A stretch of DNA of 64,000 bases from an uncultured Dehalococcoidaceae bacterium. GTDB taxonomy: Bacteria > Chloroflexota > Dehalococcoidia > UBA2979. The stretch spans positions 30,659-94,658 of the forward strand of contig CAYZJO010000005.1 of the NCBI GenBank assembly GCA_964479165.1, given 5' to 3'. The translations under genes and the position numbers were made by a program. The notes beneath the pieces were generated by a model. The model was not told where the DNA came from and did no database searches. It saw only the letters and a list, made by a program, of their open reading frames with translations. Positions 1-29,598 of this stretch are shown here, piece by piece; positions within the stretch are counted from its first letter, which is position 1, and every line of letters begins with the position of its first letter.

Positions 1-411
1 GATCACCGGACGGGCGATCAGCAGGCAGTCCTCCCATGGCTCATCGCCGGACAACTGCACGATGTCGACGCCCGCCTCGAGCGCGATCTCGTTCACTTCG
101 TCGACCGACTGGTCCGCGAAGACTCCCACCGTCAGCGGCCGCTTTACCTCGAGGTGCCCCTCGAGCACCCGGGAGCCGTGGCGGAACCACTCGTCGATCT
201 GCTCGCGGACATGAGGCAGTGCAGGTGGGGGAACGGCCATCTCGTGCTCAACGAGCGGGGCGCCGAGCGCACGCACCATCGCCTGCGCCTCGGCAACGTC
301 GACACGCCGCTTCGACTCCGCAAAGATCATCCCGACGAAGTCCGCTCCCGCCTCGGCAGCGGCGAGGACGTCCTCGGGCGTGCGGTTGCCGCAGATCTTG
401 ACGAGCGTCAC
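1..411 (-). CDS. trpF: Phosphoribosylanthranilate isomerase, N-terminal part (runs off window start)
   Basis: Manual translation from GTG at 409-411: VTLVKICGNRTPEDVLAAAEAGADFVGMIF...TVGVFADQS...DIVQLSGDE; GTGA overlap with trpC stop. Confidence 0.85.
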   Translation of the reverse strand, partial: MTLVKICGNRTPEDVLAAAEAGADFVGMIFAESKRRVDVAEAQAMVRALGAPLVEHEMAVPPPALPHVREQIDEWFRHGSRVLEGHLEVKRPLTVGVFADQSVDEVNEIALEAGVDIVQLSGDEPWEDCLLIARPVI

Positions 412-1283
412 GACGCCACCTCGGAGCCTGCGAGCAGCAGCTCGCCTGCCTTCGCGTCGATGTCGCCGCTGAGGACGAGCGCCTCGCCAACGAGCAGCGC
501 GTGCGCCCCCGCGGCGCGCATCCGCTCTGCGTCGGCGGCGGTCTTGATCGCGGACTCGGCAACGAGCACGACGTCCGGCGGCGCGAGGGCCGCGAGACGC
601 TCGAACGTGCCAAGGTCCTCCGAGAACGTGCGCAGGTCGCGGTTGTTCACCCCGAGCACGGTCGCGCCCGCCTCGACGGCGGTCGCCAGTTCCTCCTCGT
701 TGTGCACCTCGACCAGCGCCTCGAGGCCGTGCTCGCGCGTGCAAGCGAGGAGGTCGCGCAGCGCCTCGGGCGTGAGCATCATCGCGATGAGCAGCAGCGC
801 GTCCGCTCCGTGCGCGCGCGCCTCGAGCACCTGGTACGCGTCGAAGATGAAGTCCTTGCGCAACAGCGCCGGCCTGTCGGCGTCGTCGCCGAACGCAGTC
901 CGAGCGGCGCGCAGGTCGTCGAGACTGCCTCGGAAGAAGTTCGGCTCCGTCAGCACCGACACCGCCGAGGCCCCTGCGTCCGCGTAGGCACGTGCCTGCT
1001 TCGCAGCGTCGAGGTCGGCGTCGAACACGCCCTTCGAGGGGGAAGCGCGCTTGATCTCGGCGACGAGTCGCAGCCGCGCGCCGGGCAGTGCGCCCGCTCG
1101 CCCTCGACGCAGCCGCTCGGCAAAGTCGACGCGCGCGCCCGGCAGCTCCGAAGCGAGCCGCCCGAGGTGCGACTCGGGCACGTCGTGGCGAGATCGCGCG
1201 ACGTCCCCACGACGCCGCGCCACGATGCGGTCGAGCACCGTGTCGGTCGTGCGGACGCCGGCGCCGTTGGTCGCCTCGGACAT
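408..1283 (-). CDS. trpC: Indole-3-glycerol phosphate synthase
   Basis: LVAEIKRASPSKG, SVLTEPNFFRGS, LRKDFI, GVNNRDL motifs; start reassigned to ATG 1281-1283 (MSEATNG). Confidence 0.95.
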   Translation of the reverse strand: MSEATNGAGVRTTDTVLDRIVARRRGDVARSRHDVPESHLGRLASELPGARVDFAERLRRGRAGALPGARLRLVAEIKRASPSKGVFDADLDAAKQARAYADAGASAVSVLTEPNFFRGSLDDLRAARTAFGDDADRPALLRKDFIFDAYQVLEARAHGADALLLIAMMLTPEALRDLLACTREHGLEALVEVHNEEELATAVEAGATVLGVNNRDLRTFSEDLGTFERLAALAPPDVVLVAESAIKTAADAERMRAAGAHALLVGEALVLSGDIDAKAGELLLAGSEVAS

Positions 1284-1288
1284 CGCGC

Positions 1289-2314
1289 CTACCCCGTGGC
1301 CCGGCGCGTCGCCTCGACGAACGCACCCACGCGTGCGGCGGCGTCGCCGCTGTCGATGGCCTGCTTGGCCATCTCCACCCCCTGCGTGAAGGACGAAGCG
1401 AGACCGGTGACGTAGAGGCCGGCTGAGGCGTTCGCGAGGATAAAGTCCCGGATCGCGGCCGAGCCGGTGCCCGCGAAGGCAGCCCGCAGGGTCGCCGCGT
1501 TCTCCTCGGGCGTGCCGCTCATGAGCTCCTCGAGCGGGTGGATCGAGACGCCGAAGTCGGCGGGGCGCAGGGTGCGCTCCGTCACGATGCCGTTCTTCAC
1601 CTCCCAGGCGTAGGTCGGGGACGAGACGGATATCTCGTCGAGACCCTCCTCCGAAGAGACGACGAGCGCGTGCCGCATCCCCAGCCGCCCGAGCACTTCG
1701 GCCATCGTCGCCGCGCGCTCTCGGCTCGGCACACCAAGGACGTGGCAGTTCGCCGAGGCGGGGTTCGTGAGCGGGCCGAGGATGTTGAAGACGGTGCGGA
1801 TGCCGATCTGCGGGCGTAGCGGCCCCGCGAACTTCATCGCCGGGTGGAACGCCTGCGCGAACATGAAGCCGACGCCGGTCTGCTCGATGCACTCCGCGAC
1901 CTGCGTGGGGGTCAGCGCGATCTTCGCTCCGAGCGCCTCGAGGATGTCGGCAGACCCGGACTTCGAGGTAGCAGCGCGGTTGCCGTGCTTCGCCACGGTT
2001 GCCCCACACGCCGCCGCCACGAAGGCTGCCGCCGTCGAAACGTTGAACGTCTTGTGCTGGGCCCCGCCGGTGCCGCAGGTGTCGAGCAGCGGACGGCGCT
2101 CGACTCGCACCTGGAGCGCCTTCTCGCGCATCACGCGGGCCATCCCGGTGATCTCGTCGGCGGTCTCACCCTTGAGACGGAGGGCCGTGACGAACGCACC
2201 GAACTGCGCCTCGCTGGCCTCCCCCTCCATGATCTCGCGCATCACGGCTGTGGCCTCGTCCTCGGTCAGACTCCGCCCCTGTTCGACGAGGGCGATGATC
2301 GCGTCTCGAATCAC
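1289..2314 (-). CDS. trpD: Anthranilate phosphoribosyltransferase
   Basis: [40 protein letters not shown] motifs. Confidence 0.97.
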
Positions 2315-2898
2315 GCCGTCACCTCCTCGGCGACTCGCATCTTCAGGAAGTTGCGCAGCAGATCGTGGCCGACCTTCGTCATGATCGACTCGGGATGGAA
2401 CTGGACGCCCTCAATGGCGAGCGCCCTGTGTCGCACGCCCATGATCACGCCGCTTTCGGAGCGCGCGGTGACCACGAGCTCGTCGGGCAGCGTGCTCGGT
2501 TCGATGGCGAGCGAATGGTAGCGAATCGCCTCGAACGGGTTCGGCAGCCCTTCGAAGACCCCCTTGTCGTCGTGGGACACCATCGAGGTCTTGCCATGCA
2601 TGATCTCGCCGGCGGAGACCACGTCCCCACCGAACGCCTGGCCGATCGCCTGGTGCCCGAGGCAGACCCCGAGGAGCGGCACGGTGCCGGCGGCGGCTTT
2701 GATGAGGTCGACCGAGATGCCGGCCTCATTCGGCGTGCACGGCCCGGGCGAGATTACGATGTGGTCGGCCCCCATCTGGAGGCAGTCCTCGACCGTGATC
2801 TCGTCGTTGCGATGCACCTCCACGTCCGCGCCCAGCTCGGCAAGGTACTGGTAGAGGTTGAAGGTGAACGAGTCGTAGTTGTCGATGAGCAGAAGCAT
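2311..2898 (-). CDS. trpG: Anthranilate synthase component II (glutamine amidotransferase)
   Basis: [33 protein letters not shown] motifs; inside trp operon. Confidence 0.95.
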
Positions 2899-2904
2899 CT
2901 TCGG

Positions 2905-3849
2905 TTAGTCCCTCTGATCGAGGCGTGACTCGGGCATGCCGCCCTGCGCAGCCTCGTACATGCGCGCGGCGTCGCGCATCCGGTGCAGTTGCCCGGCGTG
3001 CTCGAGGTCGTGGCGCGCGATCTGCTCGATGCGGTCGCCAACGGTGACGACTCCCCGCTCGAGGTGGTTACCGAACGTGGCGAGTTGCTCAGGCGTCGCC
3101 TGCGCGAGCCACGCCTCGGTCTGCGCGCGCACTTCCGCGGCACGCGCTCGCAGTGCGACCTCGTCGAGTTGCGGCAGGGAGCGGTGCACGGCCTCCCACT
3201 GGTCGACGTTGAAGGACCGCCAGGTGTGGCCCGGCGTCAGGAGTTGCAGCGCCTCCTGCCGGTAGTACGCCTCGACGGCCGCGACGTGCGCGAGGACGTC
3301 GAGCGGCGACCAGCCTTCGTCCAATGGCCGCATCCGTGCAGCCACCGGGATCGCCTCGAACGCGGCGAGCAACTCGCTCCGCGCGGCCGTGAGTGCCTCC
3401 TGGACCGTCGCCGGATCGATGCCGACGCCATCGCCTTCGGGCTCGGCGGCGTCGAAAGCTTCGAACAGCCATGCGCGGAGCTCGGCGACCACGTTGATGC
3501 CACCCGCGCTGCCGGGATTCGTCCAGGCCGCGTCGGCATACTCATGTTCGCTGTAGCGCGGATCGCCGCGCCATTCGACGCAGGTGAAGACGTTGACGAT
3601 GTAACGCGCGCCCGCTCCGCCCGTGAGGTACACCGTCTCGGCGAACTCGAAGGGACCGGGCGTAACGTGCAGCAGGTCGCGCAGCACGCGTTCGACGGCG
3701 TCCTCGGCGACCTCCTCGTCCCGCACGACGGCCATCGGCAGCGACCACTGTCCGGCGAACTCGCCATGGTGACCGTGGTGCTGCACGAGCATCACACGGC
3801 CGTCCTCGCGGAGCAGCAGCGCGGCGGCGGCGATCTCGGGACCGGGCAT
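2905..3849 (-). CDS. Nudix-like domain fused to DinB/YfiT-like domain
   Basis: N-half Nudix-like (VMLVQH...WSLPM...VERVLRDLL, degenerate Nudix box); C-half WSPLDVLAHV...RHDLEHAGQL DinB His motif; start ATG 3847-3849 after GAGGAGG-like SD. Confidence 0.75.
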   Translation of the reverse strand: MPGPEIAAAALLLREDGRVMLVQHHGHHGEFAGQWSLPMAVVRDEEVAEDAVERVLRDLLHVTPGPFEFAETVYLTGGAGARYIVNVFTCVEWRGDPRYSEHEYADAAWTNPGSAGGINVVAELRAWLFEAFDAAEPEGDGVGIDPATVQEALTAARSELLAAFEAIPVAARMRPLDEGWSPLDVLAHVAAVEAYYRQEALQLLTPGHTWRSFNVDQWEAVHRSLPQLDEVALRARAAEVRAQTEAWLAQATPEQLATFGNHLERGVVTVGDRIEQIARHDLEHAGQLHRMRDAARMYEAAQGGMPESRLDQRD

Positions 3850-3872: not shown

Positions 3873-5360
3873 CTAGTAGCCGAGGCTCCCCGAGGGCGCG
3901 CCGCCCTCGGAGCGCTCGGCGTCGTCGATGGCGCGCAGCAGAGCGCGCGCCTTGTGCTCGGTCTCCTCGAACTCCTTCACGGGGTCGGAGTCGTAGACGA
4001 TGCCACCCCCTGCCTGGACGTGCGCCCAGCCGTGCTTCATCACCAACGTGCGGATGGTGATGCACGTCTCCAGGTTGCCCGACATGTCGAAGAAGCCGAC
4101 TGCCCCGGCGTAGGGGCCGCGCTTGTCCGGCTCTAGTTCGGCCACGATCTCCATCGCACGGATCTTCGGTGCGCCGGAGACGGTGCCCGCCGGGAAGCTC
4201 GCCCGCAGCGCGTCATAGGGGGAGAGCCCCTTGCGCAGCCGTCCCTCGACGTGGCTCACGAGGTGCATCACGTGCGAGTAGAACTCGAGGTCGAGCTGCT
4301 GCGTCACTTCGACGGAGCCCGCCTCGGAGACGCGGCCGACGTCGTTGCGCCCGAGGTCGAGCAGCATGACGTGCTCGGCGATCTCCTTCGGGTCGTGGCG
4401 CAGTTCCTCGGCGAGCCGCTCGTCGTCGAGGGGCGTGGCGCCTCGAGGCCGCGTACCGGCGATCGGGTGGTTCTCGACGCGCCCGTCCTCGACCTTCACC
4501 AGCAATTCGGGCGACGCTCCGACGATGTACGTGTCGTCGAACTGCAGGAAGTACATGTACGGCGACGGGTTGATCGCGCGCAGGCTGCGGTACACCTCGA
4601 ACGGATGCGCACCGGTCGGCTTCGAGAAGCGCTGCGAGATCACCGCCTGGATGATGTCGCCCGCGCGGATGTACTCCTTCGTCCGCTCGACCGCGGCGAG
4701 GTAGTCCTCGCGTTTCCAGTTCGACTCGACGGGACGCCCGGCGGGGCCGTCGAACGGCACGTACGGGAGCCCCGCCAGCGGCTGTGACAGACGCTCGACC
4801 AGCTGCTCGATCTTCCACTGCGCCTGCTCGTACGAGGCCTCGATGTCACCGTCGAGGCGGACGTGCGAGACGACCTTGATCGTGTGCATCAGGTGGTCGA
4901 ACACGAGCAGCGTGTCCGTGAACATCAGCCACGACTCGGGCACGCCGAGGGCGTCGCGCTCCGGCGCGCCAAGCCGCTTCTCGAAGTGCCCCGCGATCTC
5001 GTAGCCGAGGTAGCCGACCGCGCCGCCGTGGAAGCGCGGCAGCCCACGCACATCGAGGCTGCGCAACCGGTCGAGCTCCGCCTCGACGTGGACGAGCGGG
5101 TCACCGTCGTCGTGGTCGAGCGCGAGTACGCGGTACGGCTCGGTGCCGATGAAGGAGTAGCGCCCGACGCGCTCGCCGCCCTCGACGGACTCGAGCAGGA
5201 ATGAGTACGGCCCGCGCGCGATCTTGAGGAACGCGGACACCGGCGTCTCGAGGTCGGCGCGCACCTCCCGGAAGATCGGCACCACGGTGCCGCTGCCGGC
5301 CATGCGTTTCACATCAGCCAGGGCGGGGGTGAAGTCGGTAAAGGCTGCTGCGGTGGTCAT
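3873..5360 (-). CDS. trpE: Anthranilate synthase component I
   Basis: FLLESVEGGERVGRYSF, NPSPYM, PIAGTRPRG, EHVMLLDLGRND, GTVSGAPK, QAGGGIV motifs; start ATG 5358-5360. Confidence 0.97.
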   Translation of the reverse strand: MTTAAAFTDFTPALADVKRMAGSGTVVPIFREVRADLETPVSAFLKIARGPYSFLLESVEGGERVGRYSFIGTEPYRVLALDHDDGDPLVHVEAELDRLRSLDVRGLPRFHGGAVGYLGYEIAGHFEKRLGAPERDALGVPESWLMFTDTLLVFDHLMHTIKVVSHVRLDGDIEASYEQAQWKIEQLVERLSQPLAGLPYVPFDGPAGRPVESNWKREDYLAAVERTKEYIRAGDIIQAVISQRFSKPTGAHPFEVYRSLRAINPSPYMYFLQFDDTYIVGASPELLVKVEDGRVENHPIAGTRPRGATPLDDERLAEELRHDPKEIAEHVMLLDLGRNDVGRVSEAGSVEVTQQLDLEFYSHVMHLVSHVEGRLRKGLSPYDALRASFPAGTVSGAPKIRAMEIVAELEPDKRGPYAGAVGFFDMSGNLETCITIRTLVMKHGWAHVQAGGGIVYDSDPVKEFEETEHKARALLRAIDDAERSEGGAPSGSLGY

Positions 5361-5461
5361 CGGATCTCTCCGTGATCGATGGTGGACTGGGCGAAGGCGG
5401 CGCGCCACCACCAACGGCGGCCGGACGCGAGGATGCGCTGTCTCGCCATGCTGGTGCTCAT
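5357..5461 (-). CDS. Putative Trp-rich leader peptide MSTSMARQRILASGRRWWWRAAFAQSTIDHGEIR
   Basis: AAGGAG SD about 7 nt before ATG 5459-5461; three tandem TGG codons at 5405-5413; TGA overlaps trpE ATG (ATGA). Confidence 0.65.
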   Translation of the reverse strand: MSTSMARQRILASGRRWWWRAAFAQSTIDHGEIR

Positions 5462-5489
5462 CCACCTACTCCTTCGTCTCGCTCGTCCA

Positions 5490-5825
5490 CAGAACGAAAA
5501 AGGACCATCGCCTACGGGGCGATGGTCCTCGCGGTGCCACCCGTGTTTCGCGCCCGGCGACTCCGCCCGGCGCGCTCTTCGAGGCACGGCCACCGCTCGT
5601 ACGCTCGCGACTCGGCTAGCGGTCGCACGCGTACCTCGGGGCGATGCCCTGGGCCTGGATAACGGCGCCCACACCGCCGACGCCTACTGGATGCGCTGAC
5701 GCACCGTTCGGGCCGGAACTCCCGGGTCCATTCGGCCGCTGCTCGTCGGGCGCCGGGCTCTCACCTACCCCGGCTCTCTGGTGCCCCGCGTGACGGCGTA
5801 CTCGTCCCGTTCAACGTCGCTGCTA
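5490..5825 (-). promoter_or_regulatory. T-box riboswitch, Trp specifier (UGG)
   Basis: Minus strand: AGUA (5799-5802), CAGAGAGC AG-box, GGUGAGAGCC distal motif, GAA-UGG specifier (UGG 5728-5730), CCGUUA motif, T-box GGGUGGCACCGCG (about 5530-5542), then terminator. Confidence 0.85.
5497..5529 (-). terminator. Intrinsic terminator of the T-box leader
   Basis: 12-bp perfect stem AGGACCATCGCC/GGCGATGGTCCT, 5-nt loop, followed by a U-tract on the minus strand. Confidence 0.9.
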
Positions 5826-5991
5826 TATCAGCCGTGTCCCCCGCGGTACCCGCGGTCGAGCGATCATAATGCCACGAACCGCTCCCTGTCATGCAACCGG
5901 TGTCGACGGGATCCCCGATTGCGACTGAACCGTGAGGTGACTCGGCGCCGCTTGAGCATCTTCAGATGCGGTCGCGCAGATACTCGCGACC

Positions 5992-6666
5992 ATGGCAGTC
6001 GTCGACGGCCCGCTACCGGCCCCTCCGGGGAACGAGGACAACTCGGCGACCGTCGAAGGGCGCGCTACGGCGCCTCCCTCGAACGGCTTCGGGCAGTTGT
6101 GGCGCAAGGAGATCTCAGCCGCGCTTGGAGGCGGTCCGAGCGCAGCGGAACTCATGGCCCACTGGAAGGAGCACCTGACAGAGCTCTGGCCGGACGCCGG
6201 GGAGCTGTATCGATCGTACGGAGACATCCGGCGCGGCGACTTGCTCGGGATCGACTTGGGGGTGGGACCCGTCAAGCTCGCGACGGGCGTGGTGGTCATC
6301 GAGTCGAGCGACACGTCCTTCACGGTACTGTCACCCGAGGGACACATGCTGGCCGGCTGGAACCGCTTCACGACCGAGGACGCGCCGGAGGGGACCGTTG
6401 CCGCAGTGACCATCGAGATGCGCGCCTCTGACCCGTTCTACGAGGCCGGTCTGCTGTTCGGTGGCCACCGAGCCGAGGAGCGCTTCTGGGCGCAGATGCT
6501 GTGGAACCTCGCAGAGCGCTTCGGGCAGCAGCCCGAGGTGCGTGTGAAGCGGCGCCTCCTCGACCGGCGTCGCCGGTGGCGTAACGCGGGCAACATCCGC
6601 CAGAACGCCTTCCTGCGAACGAGCGGCCGTCGGATGCTCAGAGCGCTGGGGTTGGGCGGACGTTGA
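5992..6666 (+). CDS. Hypothetical protein, possibly DUF1990/SRPBCC-like
   Basis: Clean ORF with SPEGHMLAGWNRF motif; stop overlaps next gene. Confidence 0.55.
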   Translation: MAVVDGPLPAPPGNEDNSATVEGRATAPPSNGFGQLWRKEISAALGGGPSAAELMAHWKEHLTELWPDAGELYRSYGDIRRGDLLGIDLGVGPVKLATGVVVIESSDTSFTVLSPEGHMLAGWNRFTTEDAPEGTVAAVTIEMRASDPFYEAGLLFGGHRAEERFWAQMLWNLAERFGQQPEVRVKRRLLDRRRRWRNAGNIRQNAFLRTSGRRMLRALGLGGR

Positions 6667-29522: not shown

Positions 29523-29598
29523 GCCCTCGTAGCTCAGGGGACAGAGCAACGGACTTCTAATCCGCAGGTCGGAGGTTCGAATCCTCCCGAGGGCGCCA
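29523..29598 (+). tRNA. tRNA-Arg(UCU)
   Basis: Full cloverleaf: GCCCTCG/CGAGGGC acceptor, CT-TCT-AA anticodon loop (29556-29558), GGAGG-TTCGAAT-CCTCC T-arm, encoded CCA; TAAGAT -10 at 29502-29507. Confidence 0.97.

Follow-up and report, generated by a model that had tools for sequence, protein, structure and literature searches.

Why should a tryptophan operon that already begins with a T-box carry a second set of tryptophan codons, in a short open reading frame (ORF) that ends on the start codon of trpE? This question is raised by the trpE locus in a 64,000-nucleotide stretch of DNA (hereafter the window) from an uncultured Dehalococcoidaceae bacterium (contig CAYZJO010000005.1, positions 30,659 to 94,658), where a T-box leader RNA and its terminator are followed by a 34-codon leader ORF (uORF) with three tandem Trp codons. 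We propose that the two elements form a two-tier sensor of tRNA-Trp charging on the trp operon, in which T-box antitermination would be followed by ribosome stalling in the uORF that relieves the occlusion of trpE; this is an explanation towards which we lean, if only slightly, on the strength of the sequence comparisons set out below. That the uORF is translated, that ribosomes stall within it and, above all, the sign of the effect on trpE are what we infer from these comparisons. All features of the Trp sensor and of the operon lie on the minus strand of the window and are read here 5′ to 3′ on that strand:

5512..5823, minus strand: T-box leader RNA (stem I, stem II/IIA-B, stem III and antiterminator), from the RF00230 match
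5728..5730, minus strand: specifier codon for Trp, UGG, within GAA-UGG-A, from the RF00230 alignment
5530..5542, minus strand: T-box sequence GGGUGGCACCGCG, from the RF00230 alignment
5490..5530, minus strand: intrinsic terminator with a 13-bp stem (5530..5500; GAGGACCAUCGCC/GGCGAUGGUCCUU), a 5-nt loop and a U-tract, from a terminator scan and folding
5469..5473, minus strand: the leader ORF's Shine-Dalgarno (SD) sequence, AGGAG, 7 nt ahead of its ATG
5357..5461, minus strand: leader ORF (uORF) of 34 codons plus TGA, MSTSMARQRILASGRRWWWRAAFAQSTIDHGEIR, from the ORF and its relatives
5405..5413, minus strand: three Trp codons in tandem (TGGTGGTGG), uORF codons 17-19, 44 nt ahead of the trpE ATG
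5368..5371, minus strand: SD sequence of trpE, GGAG, inside the uORF, 7 nt ahead of the trpE ATG
3873..5360, minus strand: trpE, anthranilate synthase component I, 495 amino acids (TIGR00564, 554 bits; Pfam Chorismate_bind and Anth_synt_I_N)

A T-box with a UGG specifier and a terminator lies upstream of trpE

A scan with the Rfam T-box model (RF00230), suggested as a check in the earlier note on this DNA, aligned 5823..5512 (minus strand) across the whole model (positions 1-219) with 46.1 bits (E = 8.3e-9 when searched locally, 5.9e-7 when the search took in the whole window), a full-length match that nonetheless stays below the family's gathering score. Stems II, IIA/B and III are visible in this alignment, and GAA-UGG-A at 5733..5727 has the pattern of a specifier loop (S-turn GAA, codon, purine). 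In stem I, where we sought AGAGA and a GGUGNRA-type loop, the AG bulge (CAGAGAG) and the distal loop align to the model as CAGAGAGCCGGGG-UAGGUGAGA-GCCCGG. Antiterminator and terminator overlap, the former with its 3′ strand and the latter with its 5′ arm, and downstream of the terminator stem a T-rich stretch reads TTTTTCGTTCT, or UUUUUCGUUCU in its longer form. The Trp T-box that the earlier note had recognised, with its UGG specifier, antiterminator and terminator, is thus present, the terminator stem measuring 13 pairs. This is the sole terminator-like site between 5000 and 6100, where 0.2 would be expected, and its local fold has a predicted energy of -28.9 kcal/mol (z = -3.8).

The T-box is Trp-specific. 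Judging by this anatomy and by the covariation described below, it appears to be of the transcriptional type, and uncharged tRNA would bring about antitermination, as is established for the T-box family. Its UGGC bulge would pair with the 3′ end of the tRNA, GCCA, and the C of UGGC fits the G73 discriminator base that is usual in bacterial tRNA-Trp. The window contains no tRNA-Trp, its sole tRNA being a tRNA-Arg(UCU) at 29523-29598 on the plus strand. Rfam scans found no further T-box or other Trp sensor in the window.

The leader ORF begins beyond the terminator and ends on the trpE start codon

Some 30 nt past the terminator U-tract, AGGAG and a 7-nt spacer lead to the ATG of the uORF at 5461. 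The uORF encodes the motif RRWWWR, and its TGA (5359..5357) overlaps the trpE ATG (5360..5358) in an AUGA junction, so that the SD-led, 34-codon RRWWWR frame of the earlier note was recovered in every particular. In mononucleotide shuffles of the window uORF sequence, at least three Trp codons within 7 codons, counted in any frame, occurred in 0.3% of cases. The trpE start itself is backed by a Met-Thr N-terminus that is conserved in relatives. In the window the trpE frame is open up to a GTG at 5465, and the TIGR00564 match begins at residue 35 of the 495-residue form; we rejected an N-terminal extension of trpE because in three related loci (L006, L013 and L018) this frame stays open no further than 15-27 nt upstream of the Met-Thr start.

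What could such an ORF regulate? Because the T-box terminator lies upstream and no second terminator was found between the uORF and position 5000, a classical attenuator is ruled out for the uORF, whose action must follow transcription of the leader. It likewise cannot affect the upstream terminator, as the earlier note had rightly argued, and must therefore act on read-through transcripts. A classical trp attenuator was rejected on two further grounds, namely that the uORF ends inside trpE and that Rfam gave no Trp_leader match.

T-box and leader ORF are conserved among related Dehalococcoidia

A scan for TrpE with one genome per species yielded 23 loci from metagenome-assembled genomes (MAGs) of Dehalococcoidia (Chloroflexota), with about 70% G+C. 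One of these (L021) is truncated and was left out; the 22 usable relatives together with the window make up 23 trpE loci. TrpE of the relatives is 72-85% identical to that of the window, and TrpE of other phyla 42-52%. One locus (L010, CAMDAY010000008.1) is labelled Dehalococcoides mccartyi; it has 68% G+C and groups with the high-GC Dehalococcoidia MAGs, and is probably mislabelled as to taxonomy.

The T-box was found at 22 loci, that is, in the window and in 21 of the 22 relatives. GAATGGA with its UGG specifier is invariant in all 22, and so is the presence of GGGUGGC(A/G)CCGCG, upstream of which GAA-UGG-A lies at a distance of 161-205 nt. In an alignment of these 22 loci (A1) the AG bulge and distal loop motifs of stem I are nearly invariant, and compensatory changes occur in the apex of stem II, in stem III and in the terminator. 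At every one of the 22 loci the T-box sequence is directly followed by a hairpin of 11-14 bp; four or more T in a row come after it in 20 of them, and a shorter run in L012 and L014. Matches to the Rfam T-box model, sub-threshold at 31-60 bits, were obtained for 15 of the 18 relatives scanned and are full-length except for that of L005.

The earlier note had tied its proposal of two-tier control to the conservation of the Trp codons in homologous leaders. We found a Trp-rich uORF at 21 of the 23 trpE loci (the window and 20 relatives), between the T-box terminator (or trpS, see below) and trpE; this supports the proposal, with a translational function and sign that stay presumptive. These uORFs have 34-48 codons, lie in a frame other than that of trpE and start 101-143 nt upstream of the trpE start. 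All 21 contain 2-4 Trp codons within seven codons (WWW, WSWWW, WWRWW, WWRGW, WCW, WRW and others), placed 42-80 nt upstream of the trpE AUG in the relatives and 44 nt upstream in the window. The stop is a UGA on the trpE start (AUGA, +1) in 16 of the 21, and lies at -4, +5 or +14 in the other five. Nearly all of the related loci have a GGAG-type trpE SD sequence 7-9 nt upstream of the AUG. Upstream of 57 trpE loci of other phyla, we found no ORF that has a Trp cluster and ends at trpE.

At one locus (L008:2690-2880) about 200 extra nt separate the T-box terminator from the uORF, with one frame reading ...PLSHKWERG...GGRGSE...; this may be an inserted repeat element.

The tryptophan cluster is frame-specific

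Conservation of this kind need not imply translation. Open frames are cheap at about 70% G+C, and one relative, L005, works with a T-box alone; the uORF might then be untranslated, and the TGG run might be an RNA motif or have arisen by chance in a GC-rich spacer, with the T-box as sole regulator. All three frames were searched from the terminator to the first Trp codon for an ATG or GTG with at least 4 nt of AGGAGG at 4-10 nt. The best SD-led start lay in the Trp frame at 19 of the 21 loci and was the sole such start, save for a weaker GTG of the window in the trpE frame; two of the 21 uORF loci had no SD sequence by this criterion. All uORFs taken together have 61 TGG codons in frame, while the two other frames contain 12 and 10; TGG makes up 7.1% of uORF-frame codons and 1.2-1.4% in the others, and the resulting Trp content of 7.1% compares with 1.5% expected from base composition and with 0.5% in TrpE. 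With an excess of TGG that is specific to one frame, and an SD-led start in that same frame, a TGG motif acting at the level of RNA is unlikely. As the feature is also kept in about 13 divergent lineages and absent at the 57 trpE loci of other phyla, we regard an untranslated uORF as very unlikely.

The peptides of these lineages are otherwise unrelated. A MAFFT alignment brought out as conserved the initiator, the Trp cluster with a Gly ahead of it and an Arg behind it, and a C-terminal G-x-x-R. The last of these arises from the trpE SD sequence and the CGAUGA junction, and the Trp cluster with its Gly and Arg flanks is the sole peptide conservation apart from positions imposed by the trpE ribosome-binding site (RBS). 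We rejected a functional small protein because nothing in the peptide is conserved beyond the Trp cluster. In its G-W-W(-W)-R-[ST] motif the peptide resembles E. coli TrpL. Directly past the last Trp, 15 of the 21 uORFs have an Arg, which makes up 16% of uORF residues overall, and the codon after the Trp cluster begins with C in all uORFs, giving UGGC.

The stop codons invite comparison with a different kind of leader peptide. All of them are UGA, which is RF2-dependent, and all stand in a UGAC context because trpE begins with Met-Thr. A Trp-containing peptide that, like TnaC, senses free tryptophan and stalls at the UGA would, from this position on the trpE start, block trpE when tryptophan is high. 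We nevertheless rejected a TnaC-like arrest peptide, which we consider extremely unlikely: the Trp cluster lies 14-27 codons from the stop, neither an Asp nor a Pro is conserved at a fixed spacing, and the C-terminus follows the trpE RBS.

Natural variants separate the leader ORF from the T-box

Two relatives, L002 (1465-3000) and L020 (1446-3000), have the order T-box, trpS, uORF, trpE, their trpS (tryptophanyl-tRNA synthetase, TrpRS) being recognised by its HIGH and KMSKS signatures. As the uORF sits between trpS and trpE at these loci, it is a separable, trpE-specific module. Two others have no uORF. In L005 (2620-3010), which is basal on the TrpE neighbour-joining tree, the T-box and terminator lie about 55 nt ahead of trpE; L018, which is nested inside the clade, has neither a uORF nor a T-box (within 1.7 kb), a state that looks like loss. 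Taken over the tree, the uORF looks like an add-on that was gained once, kept through divergence and lost once.

How the leader ORF might act on trpE

In the mechanism that we propose, uncharged tRNA-Trp would pair with the UGG specifier and the UGGC bulge and stabilise the antiterminator, upon which RNA polymerase would pass the terminator at 5530..5490. On the read-through transcripts, ribosomes would load at the strong uORF SD sequence. With plentiful Trp-tRNA they would cross the WWW codons and the trpE SD sequence and end at the UGA on the trpE AUG, a site that would thus be repeatedly occupied, and leaky transcripts would be poorly used for independent initiation at trpE. When Trp-tRNA is scarce, the lead ribosome would stall at the Trp codons, the trpE SD sequence and AUG would be free, and trpE would be translated from its own SD sequence. 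Uncharged tRNA-Trp would then raise expression through both tiers, as in B. subtilis rtpLP-rtpA. The geometry at the 21 loci is such that the uORF stop would place a terminating ribosome over the trpE SD sequence and AUG, and we favour relief of occlusion by stalling because the uORF has a strong SD sequence, trpE has a GGAG of its own, the stop lies on the start and the Trp codons stand 42-80 nt upstream.

The AUGA geometry fits positive coupling equally well. Ribosomes ending at the UGA would in that case re-initiate at the trpE AUG, and stalling would lower trpE translation; in a variant of this explanation, the uORF would be a brake or delay on the T-box, or would deliver ribosomes through a GC-rich, structured leader. 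Sixteen of the 21 loci have AUGA, and none of the 21 has its stop outside -4 to +14 relative to the trpE start; the uORF SD sequence (AGGAG, GGAGG or AGGAGG in 16 of 21) is stronger than the GGAG of trpE, and the trpE SD sequence is partly accessible in predicted folds, with a mean P(unpaired) of about 0.2-0.8, all of which speaks for coupling. Such an arrangement would, however, clash with the T-box, which would permit transcripts only while tRNA-Trp lacks its amino acid, the very condition that would stall the uORF. Mere coupling, moreover, does not call for a conserved Trp cluster, trpE keeps a well-spaced SD sequence of its own, and TrpE is poor in Trp (0.5%), which fits an enzyme made during Trp shortage. 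On balance we think positive coupling unlikely.

A paused ribosome might instead act through RNA structure, either by remodelling the leader in the manner of ermC or by altering the access of Rho or RNase to the 5′ region of trpE. In minimum free energy (MFE) folds the Trp codons are mostly base-paired with a nearby CCACC-type segment, and the TGGTGG:CCACCA pairing to which the earlier note had drawn attention is present in the MFE structure of the window. The pairing is supported neither as a conserved element nor as one above chance, as the partner lies upstream or downstream of the Trp codons depending on the lineage and the stability of the region is no better than that of shuffles (z = -0.4). 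We also simulated stalling at the 21 loci by forbidding the footprint of the stalled ribosome to pair in thermodynamic prediction, and the blocked footprint gave no consistent gain in accessibility of the trpE SD sequence. No conserved hairpin that sequesters the SD sequence and is opened by the stall was found by constraint folding of the 21 loci and comparison with shuffles. With a partner that varies, a z of -0.4 and no consistent effect of stalling, ermC-like sequestration of the SD sequence is not supported, and we hold remodelling, or a change in Rho or RNase access, to be decidedly unlikely.

Several points weigh against a two-tier sensor in which stalling relieves occlusion. The window T-box scores 46.1 bits against an Rfam gathering score of 93, and there is no match in gathering mode; we read the low score as that of a divergent high-GC lineage and not of a false match, because the loci give E values of 1e-10 to 4e-3 and, for the most part, full-length matches. 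The loci are known from the sequences of uncultured MAGs alone. The second tier is dispensable, as L005 lacks the uORF and L018 lacks both elements. Simulated stalling at the 21 loci gave no consistent predicted change in trpE SD accessibility, and so lends a switch no structural support. Finally, an AUGA overlap is what positive translational coupling classically looks like, and such coupling predicts that stalling lowers trpE translation.

Relation to known regulatory systems

The T-box half of this arrangement is known. Wels et al. 2008 (PMC2494555) already described a Trp T-box upstream of trpE in Dehalococcoides, and trp operons of Bacillota have Trp T-boxes singly or in tandem (PMC12452182). 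For trp operons, a survey of contiguous riboswitches gives only T-box/T-box tandems (PMC12452182). The T-box of the window is like that of Dehalococcoides trpE in its UGG specifier, in its apparent control of trpE transcription and in belonging to the same class. The descriptions from Dehalococcoides and Bacillota concern T-boxes only, the second tier, if any, being another T-box, and they mention no uORF.

In the at operon of B. subtilis, a Trp T-box is followed by the rtpLP leader peptide with three Trp codons and by rtpA, which encodes anti-TRAP (PMC2311275, PMC10327191, PMC4027176), and complete translation of RtpLP prevents that of RtpA (PMC2311275; PMC10327191 citing Chen & Yanofsky 2003, 2004). 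The literature (PMC2311275, PMC10327191) agrees with the comparison to rtpA that the earlier note had drawn. The Dehalococcoidia loci share with the at operon the order of a Trp T-box and terminator, a short SD-led ORF with a Trp cluster and a gene reached by the terminating ribosome; in both, moreover, the two tiers would read tRNA-Trp charging, as we propose here from sequence. Unlike the at operon, they place this control on the biosynthetic trpE operon and not on a regulator of TRAP, and their uORFs have no sequence homology to rtpLP and belong to another phylum (Chloroflexota, class Dehalococcoidia). The two kinds of leader also differ in size, rtpLP having about 10 codons and the Dehalococcoidia uORFs 34-48. 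The rtpLP stop overlaps the SD region, whereas the Dehalococcoidia uORF stop overlaps the start codon (AUGA). An origin independent of the Bacillus system is likely; the absence of shared sequence and the retention of the Dehalococcoidia arrangement through substantial divergence suggest a convergent two-checkpoint design.

Trp leader attenuators (E. coli trpL; the trpE leaders of Corynebacterium and Streptomyces; Sinorhizobium trpL, PMC6614838; overview in PMC4833913) likewise have, ahead of trpE, a short ORF that is led by an SD sequence and holds 2-3 adjacent Trp codons. They differ from the present loci, in which no terminator or antiterminator follows the uORF, the uORF runs into trpE and the upstream T-box supplies the transcriptional control. 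As proposed here, control of downstream initiation by a ribosome stalled on a leader ORF would resemble the translational attenuation of ermC and cat; unlike in those systems, we found no conserved hairpin sequestering the SD sequence, and the stall signal would be a shortage of tRNA and not a drug. In a full-text literature search we found no published account of a trpE T-box followed by a Trp uORF, an earlier mention in reviews being possible. The components are known, then, and it is the combination of T-box and Trp uORF on a trp biosynthetic operon for which we found no precedent.

What might a second checkpoint add? At L002 and L020, read-through of the T-box would always yield TrpRS, and anthranilate synthase would be made only if ribosomes still lacked Trp-tRNA at the uORF; a stall there would signal a shortage of tryptophan and not of the synthetase. 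We suggest, tentatively and with more doubt than confidence, that the uORF is an independently evolved second checkpoint that separates two causes of uncharged tRNA-Trp, and that a T-box joined to a leader ORF with cognate codons is a recurrent, convergent module and not a peculiarity of B. subtilis anti-TRAP. In the literature searched, rtpLP-rtpA of B. subtilis is the single studied case in which uncharged tRNA-Trp is sensed in tandem, at transcription and at translation. There the pair controls a regulator, whereas the Dehalococcoidia architecture sits on the anthranilate synthase operon itself, and the two-checkpoint design would serve the most expensive amino acid. The related loci offer natural variants for comparison (T-box only, T-box with uORF, and T-box with trpS and uORF), and they raise the question of whether a stop/start overlap couples or occludes when the upstream ORF carries hunger codons. 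A second regulatory layer of this kind can escape surveys of T-boxes that go no further than the terminator.

Genes and sites around the sensor

The remaining features of the operon are as follows:

5863..5892, minus strand: promoter-like site, -35 ATGACA, 18-nt spacer, -10 TATGAT, sigma-70-like by consensus match only
2905..3849, minus strand: NUDIX and DinB_2 protein, 314 amino acids, with NUDIX and DinB_2/mycothiol-S-transferase-like domains
2311..2898, minus strand: trpG, downstream in the trp operon
1289..2314, minus strand: trpD, downstream in the trp operon
about 408..1220, minus strand: trpC, downstream in the trp operon

The NUDIX/DinB_2 gene that lies between trpE and trpG has no obvious part in tryptophan synthesis. 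The promoter-like site has 10 of 12 consensus matches, one such site being present as against 0.1 expected from shuffles, and is separated from the T-box by about 40 nt. A divergent ORF of 224 amino acids (5992-6666, plus strand), which has no NCBIfam or Pfam match, begins about 100 nt past this putative trp promoter.

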